NCBI GenBank assembly: GCA_965204745.1
Contig: OZ242010.1
Location: forward strand, 5,056,001 to 5,120,000
DNA length: 64,000 nucleotides
Reading direction: 5' to 3'
Source of the DNA: Candidatus Latescibacterota bacterium
Lineage (GTDB): Bacteria; Latescibacterota; UBA2968
Shown: piece by piece, positions 3,126-57,345 of the stretch
Layout: every line of letters starts with the position of its first letter
Numbering within the stretch: the first letter of the stretch is position 1
Notes under the pieces: generated by a model
Seen by the model: only the letters and a program-made list of their open reading frames with translations
The model's database searches: none
What the model was told of the DNA's origin: nothing
Translations under genes and position numbers: made by a program

Positions 3126-3229
3126 GTCAAATCTCCTTAAAAGCAAATTAACGGATGAAAATTTTAGGAACAGGCCCCCCCGTGCCTGTCCTTATAGATA
3201 ATAAACTCTCAGCGGTTAGCCCGCAACCC

Positions 3230-3670
3230 TGCCACCCGTGCGTGCCCTTCCCACCCCGCCGTGTCTGAATCGCGGATTAAACGGATTACGCAGATTACGC
3301 GGATTACCCCACACATCCCTACCGCCGCATCATCGTTCCCACTCCGCTATGTCCTTCGCATCCCCACCGCCATAGACCTATCCCCCCGGCCCCCTTTCCT
3401 ACAAGGAAAGGGGGAGCACATGGCTTTCTTGAAGGTTTGTATCCCTAGCTGTCCTGATGGCTTTGAGCGAATGGATCACGCCATGAAAATCCAAACCCCT
3501 CTCGCGCAATCCCCGCGCAAAACCTCTCGCCATTCCCCCTTCCTCGCAGGAAGGGGGCGAGGGGGTAGGTCCCCTCGCAAAAACGCTCACTGGTTCCCCC
3601 TTTCTCGCAGGCACAGGCGTAGCCTACAACGAAGCGAAGTGAGTAACAGGGGTTAGGGGATAGGTCCCGA
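3230..3670 (+). repeat. Composite repeat family C (CGGATTACG 9-mers plus CCCCTTCCT..AGGAAGGGG hairpins)
   Basis: Near-identical to 24880-25393; boundaries approximate. Confidence 0.75.
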
Positions 3671-3694
3671 TAATGTAGCGTTCCTTACAACCTT

Positions 3695-3740
3695 AAAAAA
3701 AAATAAAACGAGGCGATTTCCTTTTTGGAGATCGCCTCAT
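3695..3740 (-). terminator. Rho-independent terminator downstream of dsrC
   Basis: GAGGCGATTTCC/GGAGATCGCCTC stem with a T-tract on the minus strand. Confidence 0.7.
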
Positions 3741-3784
3741 TTTATTTTTCTTTGTTTCAGGGAGAATTGCGACTCCCCTTTTGA

Positions 3785-4108
3785 TTACGTGCAGCCCGTC
3801 GGCGTTGGCAGGCCCGCGATTTTGCACGCGCCATCTGCCGGGCCCGCGGGAAACAGATCGTAAATGGTATCGATGTCTTTCTCGGTCTCTTTGCACAGCC
3901 GCCGGATCAGCGGGGCGATCTCGAATTTCAGCCAGTAATTGCGGATGTAATACACCACCTGCCAATGATCCGCGCCCATCTCATCGATGCCATCTCGCCC
4001 GGCCAGATCGCGCGCCACGGCTTCGTCCCACAACTCGGGCTGTTGGATAAACCCATCTTCATCCACCTCAATTTCCTTGCCGCCCAGCATCGCAATTTGA
4101 TATGCCAA
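3785..4108 (-). CDS. dsrC: DsrC sulfur-carrier protein (TusE/DsrC family, both C-terminal Cys retained)
   Basis: EVDEDGF..P..W, HWQVV.YIR.YW, LFPAGP..GACKIAGLPTPTGC (CX10C); AGGAGG RBS, TTG start. Confidence 0.88.
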   Translation of the reverse strand: MAYQIAMLGGKEIEVDEDGFIQQPELWDEAVARDLAGRDGIDEMGADHWQVVYYIRNYWLKFEIAPLIRRLCKETEKDIDTIYDLFPAGPADGACKIAGLPTPTGCT

Positions 4109-5285
4109 CGCCGCCTCCTATTCGCCCGTGTCGTTTGGCAATATCGCGCAAGCCCTCAATCGCGGTCTCGACATGCGCTTCGGTATTGAAAGGGCCGAGG
4201 GAAATCCGCACCGTGCCCTTCATCTCCTGCGTGCCCAACCGCTCGTGAACCCTAGGCGCGCATTGCAACCCGGTGCGCGTTGCCACATTGAACTTTACAT
4301 CCAGCAAAATGCCCACATTATTCGCCGTCATCCCCGCGAGATTGACCGACAGCACGGGCACGCGCTGATCGATTTCTTCGGCGCAGTACAAAATGCACCC
4401 CTCAACACTGCGGAGACCCTCGACCAAGCGTGTGAACAACGCCATCTCGCGCGCGTGAATATTCTCCACGCCCTCGCGCTCAAGCCATTTTTGCGCGGAT
4501 AACAACCCCGCAATGCCCAGCAAATTGCCCGTGCCGCACTCCAATCGCCAGGGATACTCCTCCAAGTGATCCGGATATTCTGACCGCACGCCCGTGCCGC
4601 CATATCGCAACGGCGCCACAGACACCCCCTCGCGCACGTACATCCCGCCCGTACCCGTTGGCCCCATCAGGGACTTGTGCCCGGTAAAGCACAAAATATC
4701 GGCCTGCATCGCCTCCATGTCTATCGGCAACGCGCCCGCGGTCTGCGCGGCATCCACGCAAAAAATCACACCTCTCGCCCGACAAATCGCGCCGACCACA
4801 TGCACGGGTTGCACCGTCCCCAACACATTGGAAGCGTGGGGCATTACCACCAATTTCGTATTCGACTGGATCGCGTTGGCAACATCATCCGGATCCACAA
4901 CGCCATCGGCCCCAAACCCCACATGCGTCACCTCGACCCCCTCGTACTTTGTGAGATGGTAAATGGGGCGCAAAACCGAATTGTGATCCAAAAGCGTCGC
5001 GATCACATGATCCCCGGCTTGCAACGTGCCCTGAATCGCAATATTCAAAGCATCAGACGCATTATAGGTCAACACCAACCGATCCGGACTGCCCGTGGCC
5101 CCAAAGAACGCCGCCAACGCAACGCGCGCCTCGGCCACCATCGCCTCGGCCTCCCGCGCCAAATCCGTGCCACTGCGCCCGGGGTTCACCCCGTACTGCC
5201 GATAAAACGCCAGCGCGTCCTCCAGCACCCCCGGCGGCTTCGGAAACGTCGTCGCCGCATTGTCCATGTAAATTAAATTGGTCAT
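4068..5285 (-). CDS. PLP-dependent cysteine desulfurase (class V aminotransferase, SufS/CsdA-type)
   Basis: YMDNAATT, HNSV, HASNV, DAAQ, GHK (PLP lysine), RTGLQCA catalytic Cys; start reassigned to ATG 5285. Confidence 0.88.
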   Translation of the reverse strand: MTNLIYMDNAATTFPKPPGVLEDALAFYRQYGVNPGRSGTDLAREAEAMVAEARVALAAFFGATGSPDRLVLTYNASDALNIAIQGTLQAGDHVIATLLDHNSVLRPIYHLTKYEGVEVTHVGFGADGVVDPDDVANAIQSNTKLVVMPHASNVLGTVQPVHVVGAICRARGVIFCVDAAQTAGALPIDMEAMQADILCFTGHKSLMGPTGTGGMYVREGVSVAPLRYGGTGVRSEYPDHLEEYPWRLECGTGNLLGIAGLLSAQKWLEREGVENIHAREMALFTRLVEGLRSVEGCILYCAEEIDQRVPVLSVNLAGMTANNVGILLDVKFNVATRTGLQCAPRVHERLGTQEMKGTVRISLGPFNTEAHVETAIEGLRDIAKRHGRIGGGVGISNCDAGRQGN

Positions 5286-5351
5286 CGTGATACCAGATTG
5301 AATTGCTGTTATCCTGATATGATGCGATATGCTATCCGCAACGGATACTCT

Positions 5352-5645
5352 TGGCGTTCCGCAGTCATTCAGAGAAGCCATGGCAACCAGGCCATCGCAA
5401 AACACAATCCGATAAAGCCATCAAGCACAGCGCGTAAGGCCGTTTCGCAACCAACATCCATTATGCAACCTCCTTTGCAGGCTGGCGCGTATCGTCCTGT
5501 TACAAAAGCGATTTGCGCTGTGCAAGCCCCTCGGCGTTTGAGAGTGCCCTTTTTTGCTTCTTTTTTGGGCAAGCAAAAAAGAAGTCGCCGAAGGCATCGG
5601 AGGCAACCAACAATGCTGTAGGACCAAACGCCTTAAATGAGCAAG
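5352..5645 (+). repeat. Structured intergenic repeat family B (~300 bp)
   Basis: Highly similar to 46405-46655 and 57010-57345; internal GCACAGCGC/GCGCTGTGC and TTTTTTGC..GCAAAAAA inverted repeats. Confidence 0.8.
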
Positions 5646-5678
5646 CAACACATTTGCCAGTTGTACCCCGCTCGCAGC

Positions 5679-7046
5679 TCAGCTCATCGGCTCTTGATCG
5701 AACACAACCGCATTATTCACCAACTCATGCACCCCTGCAATCTGCAACGCCATACCGTAATGGCGTGCAATTTCCATGAGTTGCGTGCGGCATTGCAAGC
5801 ACGAGGTCGAGACGACTTTCGCATCGGTCTCGCGCATCTGCTCGGCCTTTTTTTTGCCCGAAACCCGCATCCGAAACGCCCGCACCGAGCGCAGCGCGGA
5901 CAGCCCGCCGCCCCCACCACAGCACCATTGCGTATATCCTCCATCGGGCATCTCCCGATAATCCGCGCAGGCCGCTTGCAAAATGCGCCTCGGCTCTTCC
6001 ACAATCCCGCACCCGGCGGCGAATTGGCACGCGTCGTGATACGTCACGGCCTTGGGATTTTTGTCCGGATCCAATCTCAACTCGCCCTGCTCGATCTGCT
6101 GCGCCGTGTACTCGAACCCACTCGTAATTTCAAAGGGCAGGGTTCCCCACCAGCGGCCTTTGCTCGCCATGAACTTCATCACCCGATAGGCGTGCCCGCA
6201 CTCGCCCATCACCATCACCTCGCACCCCAATTTTTCGCATGCGTCGATATAGTGCTTGTTCTCGTACTTCATGGAAAAATTGTTCCCGGTCGTAAAGCCA
6301 AAATTCGATCCGTCAAACGCCCGCGAGCTCATCGTCCAATCCGCGCCTACGGCATGAAAAACCTTTGCCATACCCATCAGATTTTCCGCGTAAACCAGCA
6401 CATCGCCCGACGGCGGCAAAAAGAAAATCTCCGCGCCCGTGCGGTCTATGGGAATGGGAATATCCCGCCCGGTTTCCTCTTTGAGTTCCCCTTCGATAAA
6501 TCGAATCGCATCCAAAAACGCCTCGGGCGACGCGCCCTCCAAATTGCCGGTTTCAAATGAATTGTGCGTGCCCTGCGCGAGGGATGGCGGCGTAAGCCCC
6601 ATCAAATCCACCAGGGACCGCCCGACGCGCGAAATCACCGAATGATCGATCCCCACCGGACAAAACGCCGCGCACCGCCGACACGTCAAACACTCGTACA
6701 CGCGCTCGGCAAACACCTCGGCATCGTCGTTTTCAAAATCCGGCTTTGGAAAAATCGCATTCCAAAACCGCCCCCAAATGGTCGCGTACTTTTTGTACAG
6801 CCGAATCACTTGCCGCGAGCGTTCCACCGGATGCATGCGCTTATCCGGTTGCCCGTAATACACCGGGCACTCCTGCGCGCACACCCCGCATTTGGTACAC
6901 GTATCCATGTACAAGCGCAGTGCTGACGGCTCGTCCTGAATCTCGCGCACAAAGGGATCCGACTCCGCAATTCGCCGCATATACGTGCGGACCAACCCCG
7001 GCGGGATGTACTTCTTCTCGCGTTCTGTCTGCTTTGGCTTTTCCAC
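5679..7046 (-). CDS. DsrK/HdrD-like Fe-S, CCG-domain heterodisulfide-reductase-type subunit
   Basis: CTKCGVCAQECP and CLTCRRCAAFCP 4Fe-4S motifs, GECGHA, TYHDAC, CCGGGGG; likely GTG start at 7046. Confidence 0.82.
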   Translation of the reverse strand: MEKPKQTEREKKYIPPGLVRTYMRRIAESDPFVREIQDEPSALRLYMDTCTKCGVCAQECPVYYGQPDKRMHPVERSRQVIRLYKKYATIWGRFWNAIFPKPDFENDDAEVFAERVYECLTCRRCAAFCPVGIDHSVISRVGRSLVDLMGLTPPSLAQGTHNSFETGNLEGASPEAFLDAIRFIEGELKEETGRDIPIPIDRTGAEIFFLPPSGDVLVYAENLMGMAKVFHAVGADWTMSSRAFDGSNFGFTTGNNFSMKYENKHYIDACEKLGCEVMVMGECGHAYRVMKFMASKGRWWGTLPFEITSGFEYTAQQIEQGELRLDPDKNPKAVTYHDACQFAAGCGIVEEPRRILQAACADYREMPDGGYTQWCCGGGGGLSALRSVRAFRMRVSGKKKAEQMRETDAKVVSTSCLQCRTQLMEIARHYGMALQIAGVHELVNNAVVFDQEPMS

Positions 7047-7059
7047 CGCTCGACTCCCT

Positions 7060-7818
7060 CTATTCACCTGCAAACGTATCGGATGTGCCCAAAAACGCAC
7101 GGCTCAAAAAAATCCCGCCCAAATGCAGCAAATGGGAAAACGGGATCGCGATCAGCAACGAGTATGCGGCGAGCAAGTGATAGACAAACATGGGTTGCAC
7201 CTCGAGCACCGGCGCCGTGCCGGTCAACAGCGCGGATGCGTATCGGCGCAACAGTTCGGCTGTCACCCCCTCGTCCAACAGCATGAGAAATGCTGTCACA
7301 GCAAAGCACAGGAGGATGAACTCCGCCAGATAGTCCCGAAAATCCGTAATCTCGCGCACGCGCTGAACCACGAGCCTGCGAACCCATAAATAAACGCCCG
7401 ACGCGCTCATCAACCCGCTACCTCCCAATGCCACAGCCAAACAAACCGCGTCCAACTCGGGCGGCAGTGCCACACGCACATGGGCAATGACCACCAGCAA
7501 CAGCCCCAAATGCAGGCACCAAGACCCCAACCACAACACCTTATCGCGCTTCCAAAGGCCGGTGAAAAACACAAACCCCTTGATCGTGCGTTTCCATTCC
7601 CCTCCCCGAGTGCGCGGTCGCCCGGGAAAAATGTCGATGGTCGGACGATACTGCCGCTTCCACACGCGATACACACGCCCTTTGCCGCCGGGCAACAACT
7701 TGAGTGCCGGATTGTAAAACCGCAACCACACCCAGATCCGCACGGTCAGCATAATAACATAAAAAGGACAGGCGAGATAGGGCAGGCGATACAGGATGAA
7801 GAAATCGAATGCGTCCAT
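7060..7818 (-). CDS. DsrM/NarI-like di-heme cytochrome b membrane subunit
   Basis: About 5-6 TM segments; heme-ligand His in WCLHLG..IAHVR and YHLL..IPFSHLLH; adjacent to the DsrK-like gene. Confidence 0.82.
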   Translation of the reverse strand: MDAFDFFILYRLPYLACPFYVIMLTVRIWVWLRFYNPALKLLPGGKGRVYRVWKRQYRPTIDIFPGRPRTRGGEWKRTIKGFVFFTGLWKRDKVLWLGSWCLHLGLLLVVIAHVRVALPPELDAVCLAVALGGSGLMSASGVYLWVRRLVVQRVREITDFRDYLAEFILLCFAVTAFLMLLDEGVTAELLRRYASALLTGTAPVLEVQPMFVYHLLAAYSLLIAIPFSHLLHLGGIFLSRAFLGTSDTFAGE

Positions 7819-7902
7819 AGATTAAGTTGCCAGCGGTCAACTTGCATTTTTTATTTTTTGGCGGATGGGGAAAGACAAAAGTCACTAGGTCGCGTTGACA
7901 TT

Positions 7903-8328: not shown

Positions 8329-8452
8329 GGATTGTGTCTATGCGTTTTGTCGCGTACGATGAACCGAATCAAAACCCTTATCTCCAATTTCTCACCTTTT
8401 CTCTTGATATAGTCTTGAATATTTGGTATTTAATTCATATTCGGAGGCAATA

Positions 8453-8689
8453 ATGCCAAGTGTCAGAAATATTCCTGGGCCATATCGGTTTTTCTTTTAT
8501 AGCTTTGATTGTAACGAACCCCAGCATGTGCATGTGAGACGAGACAAAAGAACATGCAAGTTTTGGCTTGAACCCGTTGCATTATGCAAAAATTACGGGT
8601 TTTCTCCCCATGAACTCAATGAAATTCGGCGGTTGATCCAATTGCACTTTGTGATAATTTTGGAGGCGTGGCGTGAACACTGTGAATAA
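8453..8689 (+). CDS. DUF4160-family protein (putative toxin)
   Basis: GPYRFFFYS.D..EP.HVHV..KFWL.P..I.EAW.EH pattern; GGAGG RBS before ATG 8453. Confidence 0.85.
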   Translation: MPSVRNIPGPYRFFFYSFDCNEPQHVHVRRDKRTCKFWLEPVALCKNYGFSPHELNEIRRLIQLHFVIILEAWREHCE

Positions 8690-9466: not shown

Positions 9467-10654
9467 TCACCAATTCGCATTTCCCTTTTCCCACGGATGT
9501 GCTCGGAGCACGTCCTCGACCATTGCCGTGCCCCAGCCCGCGCCCGTGGGAATGGTCAGGTGCCCGTTTTCTATTTTGGGGAGATGCGTGACCATGGCTT
9601 CGCGCCAAGGCACGTCGTCAACGTCGATTTCCATGATACGCACGTTGGGCAAAACCGCGCACAGGCTTGCGCTGATGTGGGTCGAGAGGTGGCTATAATA
9701 ATTGTGGGGCGCGATGTTGAGTTGATAGGCTTCGGCCAAATCGCCCACTTTTTTGGACTGGGCAAACCCGTTCCACGGCACATCTATCATAAACACGTCG
9801 GCGGCCCGCGCTTGGAAATAGGGGATGAACTCGCGCATGTAAAACAGGTTTTCGCCGGTGCAAATTTTGGTGCGGGTCGCGTCTTTAATCTGGCGAATGG
9901 CATCGGGTTCGTACATGTCAATTTCGAGCCAGAGCAGGTCGAATTGTTCCAACACTTGGGCGATTCGCATGCACGATTCGGGCTTGAAATTGAAATTGAG
10001 GTCCAGATTGATATCTACCTCTGGACCAACCGCATCGCGGAACGTGCCGATGAGGGTTTCGATGTGGCGGAGCAACTGGCGCGTGACCACGCCATCCGTC
10101 GTCCCCGGCGTGCCGCCAAAGCCGCCAAAATAGACGCTGGCCGGGTCGCCCGGTATGACGATGTTGGTCTTGAGTGCGGTATAGCCCTTTTCCACCACCT
10201 CGCGCCCGAGTGCGGCAATGTCGTCCATCGTGCGAAGCGGCGGGGTCTTGAGCAACTCGTGATTGCGTGCGCGAGACGTGCCGCAGTGCGACCAGTACAG
10301 GCGGATTTGATCGCGCGTTGGCCCGCCAAACAGTTCGATGACGGAGATGCCGAGGGCACGCGCCTTGATGTCGATGAGCGCGAGTTCAACCCCTGCAATG
10401 GCTTTGGCCGCAATCCCCCCGGGACTTTGGCGCGTGCCGCGCAACATATCCCAAAAGCGCATCTCGTAAGCACGTGGGTCTTTGCCGATGAGCAAGGGGG
10501 CGAGGTCGCGCACCGTGCCGGTCACGCCGTAAGGACTGCGCCCATCGCTGCACTCGCCCCAACCGCTGATACCCGCATCGGTATCCACGCGGACAAAGAT
10601 CCACGGGCGCCAACCCGCATCGACGATAAATGTTTCAATCTGGGTGATTTTCAT
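9467..10654 (-). CDS. Mandelate racemase / galactonate dehydratase-like enolase-superfamily enzyme
   Basis: MKITQIETF, GWGE, ALIDIKAR.LG, KTN, WLE, TGENL, APHN; GAGGAG RBS before ATG 10654. Confidence 0.88.
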   Translation of the reverse strand: MKITQIETFIVDAGWRPWIFVRVDTDAGISGWGECSDGRSPYGVTGTVRDLAPLLIGKDPRAYEMRFWDMLRGTRQSPGGIAAKAIAGVELALIDIKARALGISVIELFGGPTRDQIRLYWSHCGTSRARNHELLKTPPLRTMDDIAALGREVVEKGYTALKTNIVIPGDPASVYFGGFGGTPGTTDGVVTRQLLRHIETLIGTFRDAVGPEVDINLDLNFNFKPESCMRIAQVLEQFDLLWLEIDMYEPDAIRQIKDATRTKICTGENLFYMREFIPYFQARAADVFMIDVPWNGFAQSKKVGDLAEAYQLNIAPHNYYSHLSTHISASLCAVLPNVRIMEIDVDDVPWREAMVTHLPKIENGHLTIPTGAGWGTAMVEDVLRAHPWEKGNANW

Positions 10655-10671
10655 GTCAAACTCCTCGGGTT

Positions 10672-11184
10672 TTACCATCCTCCGACCTGCGCGCGATCTA
10701 CGATGTCTTTGGCGAGCATCTGGAGGGCGGCGCCGATGCCTTCTGTGCGGGCGAGGTCGCGCTGGCGGGTGGCGTCGTAAATGCCGTAGCCGCGTGCGCG
10801 TTCCATTTCCCAAAGCGTTTGCTTTTGCCGCGCGTCGTAAAAGGCCATTTTGACGAAAACCGAAATCCGATATTGCTCGGCGCCCGGTTGTCCATAGGTG
10901 AAGGGTTCTTCTTTGACCTCGAGCACCACGCCTTGCACCACGGCATCGGCGCGGTCTTCTTCGACCACGCGCAAGGTGCCATCGGAGACAAATTCCCGAA
11001 TCAAGCTGTCGGTCAATGCCTGATGGATGCCGGCTTCGAGACTTTCGTTGTCGAGCAGGGGAACGGCCACCGAGCGCGTGCCGCCGCTTCCCGTGGCGGA
11101 TGTGGAATAGTAGGCGCAACCCAAGCAAGGGATGAGCAGAAAGCAACAAGCGAACCATTTTTTGACGAGATTTGGGGCGATCAA
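10672..11184 (-). CDS. LptE-family outer-membrane lipoprotein
   Basis: Lipobox CLGC; SVAVP..DN, LTDSLIREF..DG.LRVV...ADAVV.G pattern. Confidence 0.72.
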   Translation of the reverse strand: MIAPNLVKKWFACCFLLIPCLGCAYYSTSATGSGGTRSVAVPLLDNESLEAGIHQALTDSLIREFVSDGTLRVVEEDRADAVVQGVVLEVKEEPFTYGQPGAEQYRISVFVKMAFYDARQKQTLWEMERARGYGIYDATRQRDLARTEGIGAALQMLAKDIVDRAQVGGW

Positions 11185-11546
11185 CTTTTGTTCTCCGAAT
11201 CTGCGGAGGGCGATTCCGCGTCCGCAGGGTTGTCTGTTGTCGGTTCCTCGGCAGATGCTTCGGCGTCCTTTTTGATTTCATCGACGTAGTTCATTCGCAA
11301 TTCAAACAGGACGTGTTCCAACAACCTTTGCTCGTTGTCGTTTAAGTTGCCCTTGGTTTTGGCGTCCAACATGCCGAGGATGTCGATCATGTTTTTCGCC
11401 TGCTCCAAGTTGCGCTCGATCTCGCTGGTCACGGGGTTCATGACTTTGCCCAAGTTTTGCAAAGCCATGCCCTGAAACATCATGACCAGTTGCATGAACA
11501 GCAATTCGTTTTGCTGATCTTGCGGCGGGGTGTCTTGATCGATCAT
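11181..11546 (-). CDS. DUF1844-family protein
   Basis: F.QLV..AL..LG...NP, A...IDIL.ML..KTKGNL...E..LL...L.ELRMNYV. Confidence 0.82.
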   Translation of the reverse strand: MIDQDTPPQDQQNELLFMQLVMMFQGMALQNLGKVMNPVTSEIERNLEQAKNMIDILGMLDAKTKGNLNDNEQRLLEHVLFELRMNYVDEIKKDAEASAEEPTTDNPADAESPSADSENKS

Positions 11547-11870: not shown

Positions 11871-11899
11871 TTGCACGGAACGCTTGTTGTGGGTATTAT
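11871..11899 (+). promoter_or_regulatory. Putative sigma70 promoter of the Uma2 gene
   Basis: TTGCAC-17 bp-TATTAT. Confidence 0.5.
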
Positions 11900-11955
11900 T
11901 TTGGACGGAAACATGGATGGAGAAAGGCATTGTCACTTCGCCTGGGGGGTTTGTC

Positions 11956-12561
11956 ATGACCGCCGTTGCATTGCAACAGAATGCCCTGACGCTTCATTTT
12001 GGGTCTGTGTTACGCATGAGCAGGCATGAGTTTTTTCAATTCTGCCAAGCCAATCCCGAGTTGAGGCTGGAACTCACTAGCAGGGGGGACCTGATCATTA
12101 TGCCACCGACAGGGAGCAAAACTGGACAGCGCAACTTTACACTTACGACCCAATTTGGCATGTGGATGCAATCTGATGAAACGGGTGTGGGCTTTGATTC
12201 ATCCGCGGGGTTCACCCTTCCAAATGGCGCGGTGCGCGCGCCTGATTTGGCTTGGATTCGCAAAGAGCGTTGGGAAGCCCTTTCCGCTGATGAACAGGAG
12301 GAATTTGCCCCGATTTGTCCGGACTTTGTCGTGGAACTGCTTTCTCGCACGGATCGGCTCGAGACCATCCAAAACAAGATGCGGGAATACATCGCCAATG
12401 GCGCGCAACTCGGCTGGCTCATCGATCCCAAAGCGCGGAATGTGTATGTCTATCGTCCAAATGAAGCGGTCGTTTGTCTGTCCGATCCCAAGACCATCTC
12501 GGGCGATCCCCTGTTGCCCAAGTTTGTATGTCAGGTAGGCAAACTCTGGCGAGATGAATAA
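11956..12561 (+). CDS. Uma2 (DUF820) PD-(D/E)XK putative endonuclease
   Basis: RLE...G.LIIMPP, FDSS.GF.LPNGA.R.PD, PDFVVEL.S, KM.EY..NG.QLGWLIDP. Confidence 0.92.
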   Translation: MTAVALQQNALTLHFGSVLRMSRHEFFQFCQANPELRLELTSRGDLIIMPPTGSKTGQRNFTLTTQFGMWMQSDETGVGFDSSAGFTLPNGAVRAPDLAWIRKERWEALSADEQEEFAPICPDFVVELLSRTDRLETIQNKMREYIANGAQLGWLIDPKARNVYVYRPNEAVVCLSDPKTISGDPLLPKFVCQVGKLWRDE

Positions 12562-46276: not shown

Positions 46277-46718
46277 CTGTGGCTGAGCGGATTGATTTCC
46301 GAGGTTATACCAAATTGATCTTCTGTTGACCTAATGTGATTCGATCTGCTACCAGCGATTGATCCCTTGAGGTTACACATTCATTCAAAAAAGCCATCGC
46401 ACCCCTGCCATCGCAAAAGCCCATCAGCTAAAGCCATCACGCACAGCGCGCAAGTCCGTCTCGCAACCCACATCCATTATGCAACTCACTTTGCAGGCTG
46501 ACTCATGTCGTGCGATTACAAAAGCGCTTTGCGCTGTGCTAGCCCCTCGGCGTTTGAGAGCGGCATTTTTTGCTTACTTTTTTTTGCTGTTGAAAAAAAG
46601 TAGGTCGCCGAAGGCATCGGAGGCAACCAACAATGCTTTAGGGCCAAACGCTCAAGCACCGCATGAGTCTGTTCCTCATTCCTTGATGTGCGGTGGTACG
46701 AACAAAGGAGGTGACTGT
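46248..46718 (+). repeat. Family B repeat (46405-46655) enclosed by a perfect 33-bp direct repeat (46248-46280 and 46686-46718)
   Basis: ATGTGCGGTGGTACGAACAAAGGAGGTGACTGT occurs twice. Confidence 0.85.
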
Positions 46719-56956: not shown

Positions 56957-57345
56957 GCTTTCGGGCCAAACGCTTCAGATGAGCAGGATGCGGACAACGA
57001 GCGAAGCCCTTGACGTTCCGCAGTCATTCAGCGAAGCCAGGCACCCATGCCATCGCAAAAGCCCATCCGCTAAAGCCATCATGCACAGCGCGCAAGGCCG
57101 TCTCGCAACCCACATCCATTATGCAACTAACTTTGCAGGCTAGCGCGTATCGTTCTGTTACAAAAGCGATTTGCGCTGTGCAAGCCTCTCGGCGTTTGAG
57201 AGCGGCATTTTTGAACTGCTGGGGCAGTTGTACCCCGCTCGCCTGCTTTTTTTTGCTGTTGAAAAAAAGTAGGTCGCCGAAGGCATCGGAGGCAACCAAC
57301 GAGGCTTTAGGACCAAACGCTTGCGATGAGCAGGATGCGGACAAC
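56957..57345 (+). repeat. Family B repeat with an imperfect ~42-bp terminal direct repeat
   Basis: CCAAACGCTT..GATGAGCAGGATGCGGACAAC near 56966 and 57313. Confidence 0.75.

Follow-up and report, generated by a model that had tools for sequence, protein, structure and literature searches.

A candidate cysteine-to-sulfide relay of desulfurase, DsrC and a DsrMK-type reductase in a Latescibacterota bacterium lacking DsrAB

Based on the evidence gathered here, four co-oriented minus-strand genes at positions 3785–7818 of the 64,000-nucleotide stretch under analysis (the window) are best understood as a single operon whose products form a sulfur relay that works without DsrAB, a reading to which, taken as a whole, we assign a probability of about 0.5. 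The genes, in the order M-K-desulfurase-C, encode a cytochrome b, an Fe-S protein, a cysteine desulfurase and a DsrC, and we infer a substrate, a transfer, a direction and a role for their products: cysteine sulfur would be handed to DsrC and reduced at the expense of menaquinol, yielding sulfide and alanine. That desulfurase, DsrC and DsrMK-type module act as one functional unit is supported by comparative evidence. The host is a member of the Latescibacterota with a single-contig chromosome of 5.48 Mb (97.65% complete), and the proposal suggests an undescribed route from cysteine sulfur to sulfide in a bacterium without sulfite reductase; no description of a cysteine desulfurase-DsrC-DsrMK operon was found in the searchable literature.

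The genes and the protein types originally predicted from the window are found again as open reading frames, with one family assignment corrected and two refined. DsrC (3785–4108, minus strand; 107 aa) matches PF04358 with 110.7 bits and the TusE/DsrC/DsvC family TIGR03342 with 105.6 bits, and it is the single DsrC in a search of the whole genome. Its C-terminus (...CKIAGLPTPTGCT) confirms the two cysteines of the predicted CX10C arrangement, ten residues apart, and both of them, Cys95 and Cys106, are invariant in 26/26 alignment rows. The protein clusters with two-Cys DsrCs in the tree, outside the Tyr-type clade of the 'dsrM2K2' clusters, and on sequence criteria it is the canonical two-Cys type and not the Tyr-type partner of the dsrM2K2 paralogues. 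The 3' end of the desulfurase gene overlaps dsrC by 41 nt. Relatives of the desulfurase align from residue ~41 of the long reading frame (4068–5405, minus strand; Aminotran_5, 285 bits), so that the gene more likely spans 4068–5285, encoding 405 aa from Met41. Called SufS-type in the original prediction, the enzyme belongs instead to the TIGR01977 cysteine desulfurase family (405 bits, above the cut-off of 377); SufS proper reaches only 246.8 bits against a cut-off of 475, and SclA likewise stays below its cut-off (312.6 against 525). The Lys of FTGHK and the Cys of RTGLQCAP are invariant in 26/26 rows, and three other class-V paralogues are encoded elsewhere in the genome. Downstream of the dsrC stop, direct reading of the minus strand reveals an intrinsic terminator (3700–3738) consisting of a 12-bp hairpin stem with a 5-nt loop (3738–3710) followed by a T-run, in agreement with the single terminator predicted; the terminator scan reported this hairpin on the plus strand only.

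The cytoplasmic, presumably catalytic Fe-S subunit (5679–7100, minus strand) has one CCG domain, two 4Fe-4S motifs and a GECGH motif, and since its relatives align from residues 1–24, its true start is probably some 15–25 codons downstream of 7100. All eight ferredoxin cysteines, the CCG cysteines and Cys301 are kept in 12/12 family rows and His303, within GECGH, in 11/12; the last CCG position is occupied by Cys (C437), not Asp. According to PMC10861901 and bioRxiv 10.64898/2026.08.25.746951, GECGH bears the strictly conserved Cys329 of DsrK, and DsrK homologues in dsrMK arrangements retain Cys at the last CCG position. The membrane subunit (7060–7818, minus strand; 252 aa) matches the NarI family PF02665 with 43.5 bits (cut-off 22.9), has about five hydrophobic segments and carries His103, His113, His214 and His232, spaced 10 and 18 residues apart and invariant in 13/13 aligned relatives; it is predicted to be a NarI/DsrM-like di-haem cytochrome b. 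The names DsrM and DsrK stand insofar as these are the best-matching NCBIfam profiles (DsrM 51.6 bits over TmcC 40 and HmcE 35; DsrK 310.9 over TmcB 209 and HmcF 188), yet both scores lie under the curated DsrMKJOP equivalog cut-offs, that of DsrM (300) by far and that of DsrK (400) as well, which counts against the proposed relay. The nearest DsrK relatives, at ~50% identity, are the 'dsrM2K2' paralogues, recovered as the sister clade (SH-aLRT 96), and dsrA is present in 4/5 of their host genomes tested. By its placement in the tree, the MK pair is thus sister to paralogues of dsrAB-bearing bacteria and not the canonical DsrMK that had been pictured originally.

The operon is conserved within one family of the phylum. 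The DsrK-like gene occurs in 28/30 other genomes of that family and, bar two weak matches (27–29% identity), in 0/137 of the remaining Latescibacterota genomes. The desulfurase orthologue adjoins dsrK in 27 of the 31 family genomes, and all four genes are together in 21/21 Latescibacterota loci with sufficient flank (two further loci, cut by contig ends, fall outside this count); three more divergent loci likewise carry the four genes, for a total of 24 distinct related loci. The flanking genes are not conserved among relatives. In these the gap between dsrK and the desulfurase gene is ~14 nt, whereas here it holds a 393-bp dispersed repeat (5286–5678) with 105 blastn matches in the genome at E<=1e-10, 86 of them at least 250 bp long, at a median identity of 83.5%; two more copies are located within the window, at 46304–46651 and 57009–57332. 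The repeat could uncouple the transcription of dsrK and desulfurase and in this respect counts against the proposed relay. Its insertion would also suit a Dsr pathway that has been lost and survives only as decaying, by now functionless remains, as would the missing dsrAB and the dsrAB-bearing hosts of the nearest DsrK relatives. We consider such decay highly improbable, given open reading frames that are intact and catalytic residues that are retained across five genera, dN/dS values of 0.046–0.257 in the 10 usable comparisons (from 12 plus two clean ones; dS is saturated, hence the values are rough), and the presence in the cluster of a desulfurase that was never found in the dsr loci examined and is paired in the same way in other phyla.

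The absence of dsrAB and dsrEFH, noted originally for the 64 kb, extends to the whole single-contig genome. Neither dsrA nor dsrB is found over cut-off in the complete 5.48 Mb chromosome, where the sole weak matches come from a 762-aa NirA-family assimilatory-type reading frame; a complete dsrAB locus elsewhere, named at the outset as grounds for rejecting the relay, is missing, and dsrA over cut-off is found in 0/31 family genomes. PF02635 (DsrE/F/H) and TusA each give 0 matches in the complete genome, which leaves no other candidate partner, and dsrJOP are not part of the four-gene cluster. With DsrAB missing from genome and family alike, sulfite cannot be the sulfur source.

The pairing of desulfurase and DsrC reaches well beyond the Latescibacterota. 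Among 79 loci of desulfurase relatives (50–56% identity) from at least seven other phylum-level lineages, a two-Cys DsrC adjoins the desulfurase in 35, so that the synteny survey proposed originally finds the two genes kept side by side here as well as in the 24 related loci. In 27/79 loci the two-Cys DsrC is accompanied by an HmcF/TmcB-like CCG protein and a small membrane protein related to NarI, in 8/79 the desulfurase adjoins DsrC alone and the vicinity contains no reductase, and in 39/79 neither DsrC nor K is nearby. These last loci count against the relay: linked and unlinked members interleave in the desulfurase tree, so that the family has no strict tie to DsrC; DsrC is nevertheless encoded somewhere in 5/5 of the 'unlinked' genomes tested. 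The four-gene module of the 27 loci, for which literature searches returned no description, occurs (hosts named as in the record titles) in Bacteroidota, Acidobacteriota, Planctomycetota, Gemmatimonadota, Zixibacteria, Eisenbacteria and Chitinivibrionales MAGs, and it is rare, a point against the relay, with its CCG protein detected at E<=1e-60 in only 6/401 sampled Bacteroidota genomes; dsrA was found in 0/5 genomes tested that carry it. It has in common with the window the desulfurase subfamily, a two-Cys DsrC (43–52% identity) and a membrane anchor with CCG reductase. It differs in gene order (C-membrane-K-desulfurase), in a membrane subunit of only ~205 aa with two invariant His, and in a non-orthologous reductase pair whose CCG protein (TmcB 310, HmcF 298, DsrK 245 bits) falls in a separate clade far from the window DsrK. 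Because these loci pair desulfurase and DsrC with a different, HmcEF/TmcBC-like reductase, the two genes have been coupled on two occasions to DsrMK-type reductases that are not orthologous, and the window shows one form of a broader module that exists in two.

Two alternatives assign the desulfurase and DsrC to biosynthesis or to selenium. In the first, the desulfurase would load a TusE-like DsrC, from which the sulfur goes to an anabolic acceptor, for example to MnmA in 2-thiouridine synthesis or to a thio-cofactor, and the only task of the DsrMK-like pair would be to keep DsrC reduced. Biosynthetic desulfurases as a rule have a carrier as partner (IscS-TusA, SufS-SufE, CsdA-CsdE), and membership of DsrC in TIGR03342, the eight loci without a reductase and a host that respires oxygen, and so might do without a sulfur electron sink, all speak for this possibility. 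We nonetheless regard it as doubtful: the TusE equivalog scores 77.6 bits against a cut-off of 191, TusA and the TusBCD/DsrEFH-family genes are missing, both DsrC cysteines are invariant where TusE-type proteins generally need one only, three class-V paralogues are free for housekeeping, and a membrane di-haem cytochrome b with CCG reductase, recruited twice independently, is typical of energy metabolism. In the second alternative, the PLP enzyme would be a selenocysteine lyase, with selenium held on DsrC as selenotrisulfide and released by the DsrK-like reductase as selenide for SelD. SclA is indeed the second-best family, two-thiol selenotrisulfides are known chemistry, and SelD occurs with an in-frame TGA in this genome and 5/5 genus genomes and over cut-off in 4/5 module-bearing genomes of other phyla. 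Selenium handling is still very unlikely in our judgement, considering that TIGR01977, not SclA, exceeds its own cut-off, that SelD lies distant from the cluster, and that SelD is missing from a complete, module-bearing Holophaga chromosome; moreover, SelD is present in 131/168 genomes of the phylum, also in families and a genus without the module (f2, 22/22; g6, 2/2), which makes its co-occurrence uninformative.

To proceed as a cysteine-fed relay, the reaction would begin with removal of sulfur from L-cysteine by the PLP-dependent desulfurase, giving alanine and a persulfide on the catalytic Cys. DsrC would accept this sulfur in the next step, on Cys106, the penultimate residue of its flexible C-terminal arm. 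Together with Cys95 the sulfur could be retained as persulfide or trisulfide, or else expelled as sulfide with formation of a DsrC disulfide. The DsrK-like subunit, through its non-cubane 4Fe-4S cluster and the GECGH cysteine, would then reduce the oxidized DsrC with electrons from menaquinol oxidized at the NarI-like di-haem DsrM subunit, for the net conversion of cysteine and menaquinol into alanine, H2S and menaquinone. When the desulfurase dimer is modelled together with DsrC, the complex reaches an ipSAE of 0.65 compared to 0.00 for the best control, a level attained by 58/80 solved complexes and 2/110 mismatched pairs in a calibration that is only rough here, given the use of our own alignments and a dimer. 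The runs share at least 72% of contacts at a partner pLDDT of at least 86, and the modelled interface brings desulfurase residues 320–331 and 385–386, just ahead of the catalytic-Cys loop, against the base of the DsrC arm (88–92). The original idea that the desulfurase loads DsrC, with DsrMK as the tie to the membrane, is partly supported: comparative evidence and a dimer-DsrC model that passes its controls speak for one functional unit. A quinone pool is plausible, since two MqnA/D-family genes (futalosine route) and NuoH are present in the genome; one Mqn gene is 3–6 kb from the cluster in 6/6 sampled genus relatives. The relay would most likely serve, under certain conditions, as an electron sink or respiratory acceptor, which, as the genome encodes a haem-copper oxidase, could matter only under low oxygen. 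By analogy with the proposal for DsrMK-only complexes, the protons of quinol would leave on the outer side of the membrane, with proton consumption on the inner side. Menaquinol we take to be at best iso-potential with cysteine-sulfur reduction (E0' ~-0.1 V vs ~-0.07 V, our own estimate from formation energies). The DsrC-trisulfide potential is not established according to PMC10861901.

Parts and conservation would likewise fit with control of sulfane-sulfur stress, whereby DsrC gathers persulfide or polysulfide sulfur, supplied in part by the desulfurase or by a different substrate of C-S lyases, cystine for example, and the reductase releases it as sulfide without energy conservation. Class-V enzymes do include cystine C-S lyases, and the related M2K2 clusters of dsrAB-bearing bacteria adjoin MerR-type and Rrf2 regulators, typical of stress regulons. 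Comparison of neighbourhoods, however, revealed no regulator or persulfide-sensing gene kept beside the Latescibacterota operon, and a dedicated sulfur-generating enzyme is hard to explain in a detoxification operon, so that we think this function unlikely.

Among the closest known systems is the DsrAB-DsrC-DsrMK(JOP) pathway of dissimilatory sulfite reduction in sulfate- and sulfite-reducing microbes, with which the proposed relay shares a two-Cys DsrC having the same C-terminal arm, the DsrK type with one CCG cluster and GECGH cysteine, the NarI-type di-haem DsrM, and a proposed step in which quinol drives the conversion of DsrC-bound sulfur into sulfide; a cysteine desulfurase takes the place of DsrAB, and the last CCG ligand is Cys instead of the Asp of DsrMKJOP-type DsrK. 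The 'dsrM2K2' paralogue clusters, named so in PMC6018796, have similar NCBIfam profiles (DsrK 343–353 bits vs 311 in the window). They differ in a DsrC-like protein with Tyr replacing the first Cys, often in tandem with a DsrC lacking the last Cys, in their MerR/Rrf2 regulators, in the lack of a desulfurase (0/55 loci) and in genomes that contain dsrA (4/5 tested), unlike that of the window. In tRNA thiolation by IscS-TusA-TusBCD-TusE-MnmA, a cysteine desulfurase feeds a TusE/DsrC-family protein, as proposed here, whereas the present genome is without TusA and TusBCD, its DsrC scores below the TusE cut-off and has a second conserved Cys, and a membrane reductase joins the set. SufS-SufE and CsdA-CsdE exemplify a type-II-like class-V desulfurase encoded beside a dedicated small sulfur acceptor, and the modelled DsrC docking site near the catalytic loop is in line with them; the acceptor in the window, however, is of the DsrC fold, and desulfurase and acceptor appear wired to a respiratory-type reductase, not to Fe-S assembly. 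Lastly, in HdrED of methanogens, a membrane cytochrome b and a CCG-cluster subunit draw electrons from a membrane carrier to reduce a substrate of disulfide type. This comparison, drawn also in PMC10861901, extends to Cys as the last CCG ligand, while HdrED has two CCG motifs and acts on CoM-S-S-CoB, as opposed to the one CCG motif of the window DsrK and its proposed protein substrate, DsrC.

The reading best supported by the collective evidence is a self-contained relay, running from a cysteine desulfurase through DsrC to a DsrMK-type reductase, that would give sulfide. The genes concerned lie at window 3785-7818, and the original prediction of four co-oriented genes ending in a terminator was borne out: all four are on the minus strand, and a 12-bp hairpin with a T-run, read directly on that strand, lies 3' of the dsrC stop, the automated scan having given the plus strand only. 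P0001 (7060-7818, minus strand; 252 aa) is a NarI-family, DsrM-like membrane cytochrome b (PF02665, 43.5 bits against a cut-off of 22.9). Its scores on the NCBIfam models are all weak (DsrM, NF038037, 51.6 against a cut-off of 300; TmcC, 40.2; HmcE, 35), so that it appears to be a member of the NarI family, yet outside curated DsrM. P0002 (5679-7100, minus strand) is DsrK-like and has a single CCG domain beside two motifs of the ferredoxin type. It reaches 310.9 bits on the DsrK model (NF045796), below the equivalog cut-off of 400, and 209 and 188 bits on TmcB and HmcF, a canonical DsrK of a dsrMKJOP locus scoring 739.3 on the DsrK model for comparison. The full DsrK motif set, defined in PMC10861901 as two 4Fe-4S motifs, a single CCG domain and GECGH with a non-ligating Cys, is present, and P0002 departs from DsrK in not occurring together with DsrAB, as dsrA and dsrB are below cut-off in its own genome. 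Its one match among PDB sequences is a distant CCG-domain protein (9ojn_A, E 4.8e-11).

P0003, a PLP enzyme of class V, spans 4068-5405 (minus strand) as an ORF, but the true gene is probably 4068-5285, since alignments with relatives begin near residue 41. Its earlier designation as SufS-type does not stand: the protein scores 246.8 bits against the 475.1 needed for SufS (TIGR01979) and instead exceeds the cut-off of TIGR01977, "cysteine desulfurase family protein" (405 against 377 bits). Selenium handling, a rival to the sulfide-forming relay, is touched by the score of the same enzyme on the selenocysteine lyase SclA (NF040779), 312.6 bits against 525. Co-occurrence with SelD was considered as a test of that rival and discarded as uninformative, SelD being found in 131 of the 168 phylum genomes with or without the module, mostly with the same in-frame TGA. 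A single TGA also lies in frame in the SelD gene of the window's own genome (G000:C1:2158845-2159765, outside the window), which suggests selenocysteine. In one distant genome of the Latescibacterota, a SelD fragment is directly adjoined by a CCG protein (G003:C229:4803-6602) that resembles the window's DsrK only weakly, at 29% identity. P0004 (3785-4108, minus strand), whose ORF overlaps that of the desulfurase by 41 nt, is a DsrC (PF04358, 110.7 bits against 24.9) with both tail cysteines present; the penultimate Cys and the Cys eleven residues earlier fit a functional two-Cys DsrC. A biosynthetic, TusE-like relay is the rival on which this protein bears: it reaches 77.6 bits on the TusE equivalog (NF008562; cut-off 191), and the TusBCD/TusA partners are absent from the genome.

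The genome is a single contig of 5,482,115 bp, 97.65% complete, and the absence of dsrAB, claimed originally for 64 kb, extends to the whole of it: neither dsrA nor dsrB exceeded the cut-off in a whole-genome family search. Weak dsrA/dsrB matches are confined to one 762-aa ORF beside moaA that is best matched by a NirA-family, assimilatory-type reductase (280 bits, also below cut-off). Genome-wide, there are no matches to the DsrE/F/H family (PF02635) or to TusA (PF01206), DsrC exists in one copy only, and CCG domains occur at three places, two of them beyond the operon in much larger ORFs; the desulfurase has three further class-V paralogues at 31-37% identity. NuoH and haem-copper oxidase subunit I are encoded. 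The genome holds two genes of the MqnA/D family, a marker of the futalosine route, and MenA was found neither there nor in any of the seven genus genomes searched. In all six genus relatives sampled (G089, G073, G088, G077, G087, G078), an MqnA/D-family gene lies 3-6 kb from the cluster; the window's own is about 480 kb away (C1:4572437-4573210).

Conservation in relatives is strong. The DsrK-like protein matched 26 loci, 23 of them Latescibacterota-type; all four genes stand together in 21 of these 23, the other two ending at contig edges. Three further loci, more divergent, came from a profile search and again have all four genes (identities of 72-73% for DsrK, 62-67% for desulfurase, 71-78% for DsrC and 39-42% for DsrM). 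In one of the divergent relatives, a family-4 glycosyltransferase gene (L054:5748-6917) sits between the DsrM-like and DsrK-like genes. Across a phylum survey of 168 species genomes, the DsrK-like gene was present in 28 of the 30 other genomes of the family, with five genera positive and a sixth at 0 of 2, and in none of the 137 remaining genomes, barring two matches at 27-29% identity. The desulfurase proved to be conserved as well, an orthologue of at least 64% identity occurring in 28 of the 31 family genomes and adjoining dsrK on the same contig in 27; dsrA was over the cut-off in none of the 31. A relic of a lost pathway, another rival, is largely excluded. Pairwise dN/dS was 0.046-0.257 in the 10 usable comparisons, drawn from a first set of 12 and two clean follow-up ones, values that are rough since dS is saturated; the L006 desulfurase, with a stop codon in its matched stretch, and the L053 DsrK and L020, which gave no dS, dropped out. 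A ratio of 1.64 for the DsrK of L006 was rejected as an artefact, two stops in the upstream part of its tblastn match throwing off the count of codons; the clean relative L009 gave 0.05.

The window's flanking genes (HpcH aldolase, xylose-isomerase-like TIM barrel, MR_MLE, Uma2, DUF4160, GDE) have no counterpart beside the cluster in other loci, with the exception of two upstream genes shared with the two closest relatives. Relatives have glycosyltransferase, AhpC/TSA, MCP and nitroreductase genes instead, and since flanks in other genera are unrelated to those of the window, the four genes travel as a unit. No flank is conserved with the cluster, and the flanking genes gave no functional hint. 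Among the upstream neighbours are a DUF4160 gene (window 8423-8689), a Uma2-family putative endonuclease (11884-12561) and a mandelate racemase/enolase-superfamily protein (9467-11281) that is unusually long at 604 aa, being extended by about 220 aa at its N-terminus. The gap that separates dsrK from the desulfurase gene (window 5286-5678), only about 14 nt in relatives, is filled by a dispersed repeat of about 370 bp with a short palindrome inside, found also at 46304-46651 and 57009-57332 and in 86 copies of at least 250 bp in the genome (median identity 83.5%). A second dispersed family occupies window 3147-3784 downstream of dsrC, including a 131-aa ORF (3261-3656) without a family match; blastn at E<=1e-10 matches this family 507 times across the genome, with 71 of the matches at least 250 bp long. 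DNA nearly identical to window 3700-7900 is indexed in sponge-metagenome runs (four runs of one study, 0.62-0.74 of sampled words) and in marine-metagenome runs, and the sequencing-run index listed no RNA runs with it; sponge association of this lineage is a habitat lead only, drawn from that index.

As regards the origin of the reductase pair, a database search with the DsrK-like protein gave 1303 relatives at E<=1e-10, and identity is about 50% for most of the best 120. Their clusters combine a MerR/HTH_17 regulator with DsrC-like, DsrM-like and DsrK-like genes, often adding an Rrf2 regulator and a tandem DsrC-DsrC. They match the "dsrM2, dsrK2" paralogues that PMC6018796 calls not uncommon upstream of dsrAB in sulfate reducers. 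A dsrB match is found within 7 kb in ten of these dsrM2K2-type loci, eight of which also have a clear dsrA match of at least 63% identity; in L095 the pair lies directly between dsrABDN-C and the canonical dsrMKJOP, and true dsrA was present in 4 of the 5 whole genomes tested. A desulfurase was found in none of the 55 loci (L059-L113). On the DsrK model, their DsrK proteins reach 343-353 bits, which is similar to the 311 of the window's protein and unlike the canonical 739. In a quick maximum-likelihood tree of 114 DsrK-type rows, with SH-aLRT as the only support measure, the window's family forms a clade (11 rows, 100) sister to that of the dsrM2K2-type proteins (55 rows, 97), with a joint support of 96, and canonical DsrK is placed elsewhere. 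This tree and that of the desulfurase omit near-duplicates within the family (of the 24 loci L035-L058, 9 were kept), stop-bearing rows and rows shorter than 330 aa. The DsrC partners differ: in the dsrM2K2-type clusters a Tyr replaces the first Cys and an extra Cys lies upstream, and the fused tandem copies are without the last Cys (examples at L092:5831-6148, L092:3236-3856 and L105:8795-9457), whereas the window's DsrC is of the two-Cys type. In a quick maximum-likelihood tree (154 rows, 101 columns; SH-aLRT only), the latter groups with canonical two-Cys DsrCs and not with the Tyr-type clade, which has a support of 97; branches within the two-Cys group are poorly resolved, with supports of 39-74 that are too low to single out the nearest two-Cys DsrC. 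We know of no characterisation of this set of Tyr-type DsrC, tandem DsrC-DsrC and MerR/HTH_17 plus Rrf2 regulators. Near the dsrM2K2-type clusters, at L092:178-2001 (minus strand) and some ten similar loci, a DsrK-like CCG/Fe-S protein carries a response-regulator receiver domain fused to its C-terminus; the DsrK tree groups these proteins beside the HmcF/TmcB-like proteins of the module in other phyla.

That module came to light through the desulfurase, relatives of which occur at 50-58% identity in many phyla. A profile scan gave 79 loci outside the window's family, their record titles naming Bacteroidales, Ignavibacteria, Phycisphaerae, Aminicenantes, Acidobacteria, Holophaga, Thermoanaerobaculaceae, Gemmatimonadales, Zixibacteria, Eisenbacteria and Chitinivibrionales. 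A two-Cys DsrC, a small membrane protein and a CCG protein stand beside the desulfurase relative in 27 of the 79, DsrC alone in 8, and the membrane and CCG proteins in one stopped by the contig end; 4 have only an unrelated K-like gene, and 39 none of the three. In the full modules, the DsrC tail reads ...GACK/R...PDGCV. The membrane protein (about 205 aa) has no Pfam match, a weak one to HmcE (27.7 bits) and two invariant His, and profile comparison (probability 90.8%, E 1.2e-6) shows it to be a homologue of the final two helices in the window's DsrM family. The CCG protein (about 430 aa) is about 30% identical to the window's DsrK, scores 310 bits on TmcB, 298 on HmcF and 245 on DsrK, and forms a separate clade in the other half of the DsrK tree (26 rows, support 99). 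No dsrA, even weak, was found in the five module-bearing genomes tested. Five genomes with "unlinked" desulfurase relatives all have DsrC elsewhere, adjoining the small membrane protein in two rumen Bacteroidales, and the desulfurase tree interleaves the linked members with the unlinked ones, the window's family being one clade within the subfamily. The module is rare: among 401 Bacteroidota genomes sampled, 6 have the CCG protein at E<=1e-60, and only two of those at 72% identity or more. The key comparative result is that the same desulfurase subfamily and kind of two-Cys DsrC are joined to two non-orthologous versions of membrane anchor and CCG reductase, both in DsrAB-free genomes.

With the canonical DsrK of L095 and published papers as reference, the DsrK-like protein has C68/71/74/78, C137/140/143/147, C358, C393, C394, C434, C437 and C301, all retained in 12 of 12 family rows, and H303 of GECGH in 11 of 12; this His is present in all rows of the other groups, and all eight ferredoxin Cys, the CCG Cys and the GECGH Cys are conserved in every row of all DsrK-type groups. 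PMC10861901 and bioRxiv 10.64898/2026.08.25.746951 describe the GECGH Cys (Archaeoglobus fulgidus Cys329) as strictly conserved and likely to be catalytic, and the last CCG ligand as Asp in DsrMKJOP-type DsrK and Cys in homologues of dsrMK arrangement. That position is Cys in all 12 family rows, all 60 dsrM2K2-type rows and all 38 module-group rows (assigned by identity), and Asp in 2 of 4 canonical rows. Desulfurase K204 and C342 (405-aa numbering), which by their motifs we take to be the PLP-binding Lys and the catalytic Cys, are invariant in 26 of 26 rows, as are C95 and C106 of DsrC. In the DsrM-like protein, H103, H113, H214 and H232 are invariant (13 of 13 rows) and fit the four-His, two-helix pattern of haem ligands, with a spacing that is presumably that of the NarI ligands. 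In bioRxiv 10.64898/2026.08.25.746951, DsrM of MK-only complexes is argued to keep a NarI-like quinol-oxidising site, the open site defining the DsrM-1 type and an occluded one the DsrM-2 type.

Structure prediction points to a direct contact of desulfurase and DsrC. The desulfurase dimer modelled with DsrC (26-row alignment each) scored 0.65, 0.66 and 0.65 in three runs, with three controls all at 0.00; these values express the confidence of a model and are not measured binding. Of the solved complexes used for calibration, 58 of 80 attained this score mark, as did 2 of the 110 mismatched pairs, a calibration that is rough (own alignments, non-pair job). The runs agreed in 72% or more of their contacts, and pLDDT of the partners was 86 or higher. 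The confidently predicted contacts involve desulfurase residues 320-331 and 385-386, together with 41 and 44 of the second protomer, and DsrC residues 67-72, 79-83 and 88-92, which would place the base of the DsrC arm beside the segment preceding the catalytic-Cys loop. We know of no solved complex of a desulfurase with DsrC or TusE, which makes it less likely that the score reflects a memorised structure.

In the proposed mechanism, persulfide sulfur of the desulfurase would be passed to Cys106 of DsrC, acting with Cys95, and menaquinol electrons would flow through the DsrM-like cytochrome b to the DsrK-like subunit for reduction of the loaded DsrC, yielding sulfide and regenerated DsrC. Sulfane-sulfur control is a further rival; like the biosynthetic relay and selenium handling, it is less probable than the sulfide-forming relay. 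From formation energies, we estimate E0' of cysteine/(alanine + H2S) at about -0.1 V. That would be roughly the potential of menaquinone, and the reaction would be clearly exergonic if H2 or NADH were the ultimate donor. [quoted passage not shown] Because the organism also respires oxygen, the relay could act as an electron sink only conditionally. More tentatively, at a probability of roughly 0.3, the relay might amount to a DsrAB-independent, energy-conserving "cysteine-sulfur respiration", with the desulfurase converting cysteine to a sulfane acceptor carried by DsrC and a quinol:DsrC oxidoreductase reducing this to H2S and delivering quinol protons outside, assembled at least twice from non-orthologous DsrMK-type modules in at least seven phylum-level lineages, rumen Bacteroidales and this Latescibacterota lineage included. 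If that were true, cysteine would be added to the respiratory electron acceptors, and metagenomic matches to dsrC and dsrMK would not imply sulfite reduction. If the relay works, it would be a new biological route to sulfide from organic sulfur, leaving alanine and not pyruvate, and could be a new anaerobic electron sink. It would also place part of the uncharacterised TIGR01977 family, and "orphan" homologues of DsrC, DsrK, HmcF and TmcB, in a functional context for the first time, and a four-protein system without a sirohaem enzyme offers a simple setting in which to study how non-cubane clusters of the DsrK type reduce DsrC-bound sulfur.

Compared with known systems, the component families are familiar and it is their combination that appears to be new: a dedicated cysteine desulfurase together with a DsrC of the two-Cys type and a reductase of the DsrMK type, in genomes that lack DsrAB. 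The literature searched yielded no description of that combination or of its two versions across phyla; supplementary tables of PMC10504309 might list such genomes, its analysis being limited to DsrABCMK organisms and noting 7 assemblies of a basal dsrMK clade without identified DsrAB. DsrC and DsrMK are treated as markers and obligate partners of DsrAB, whereas here they form, with a desulfurase, a conserved unit in DsrAB-free genomes that has a parallel version in several phyla.
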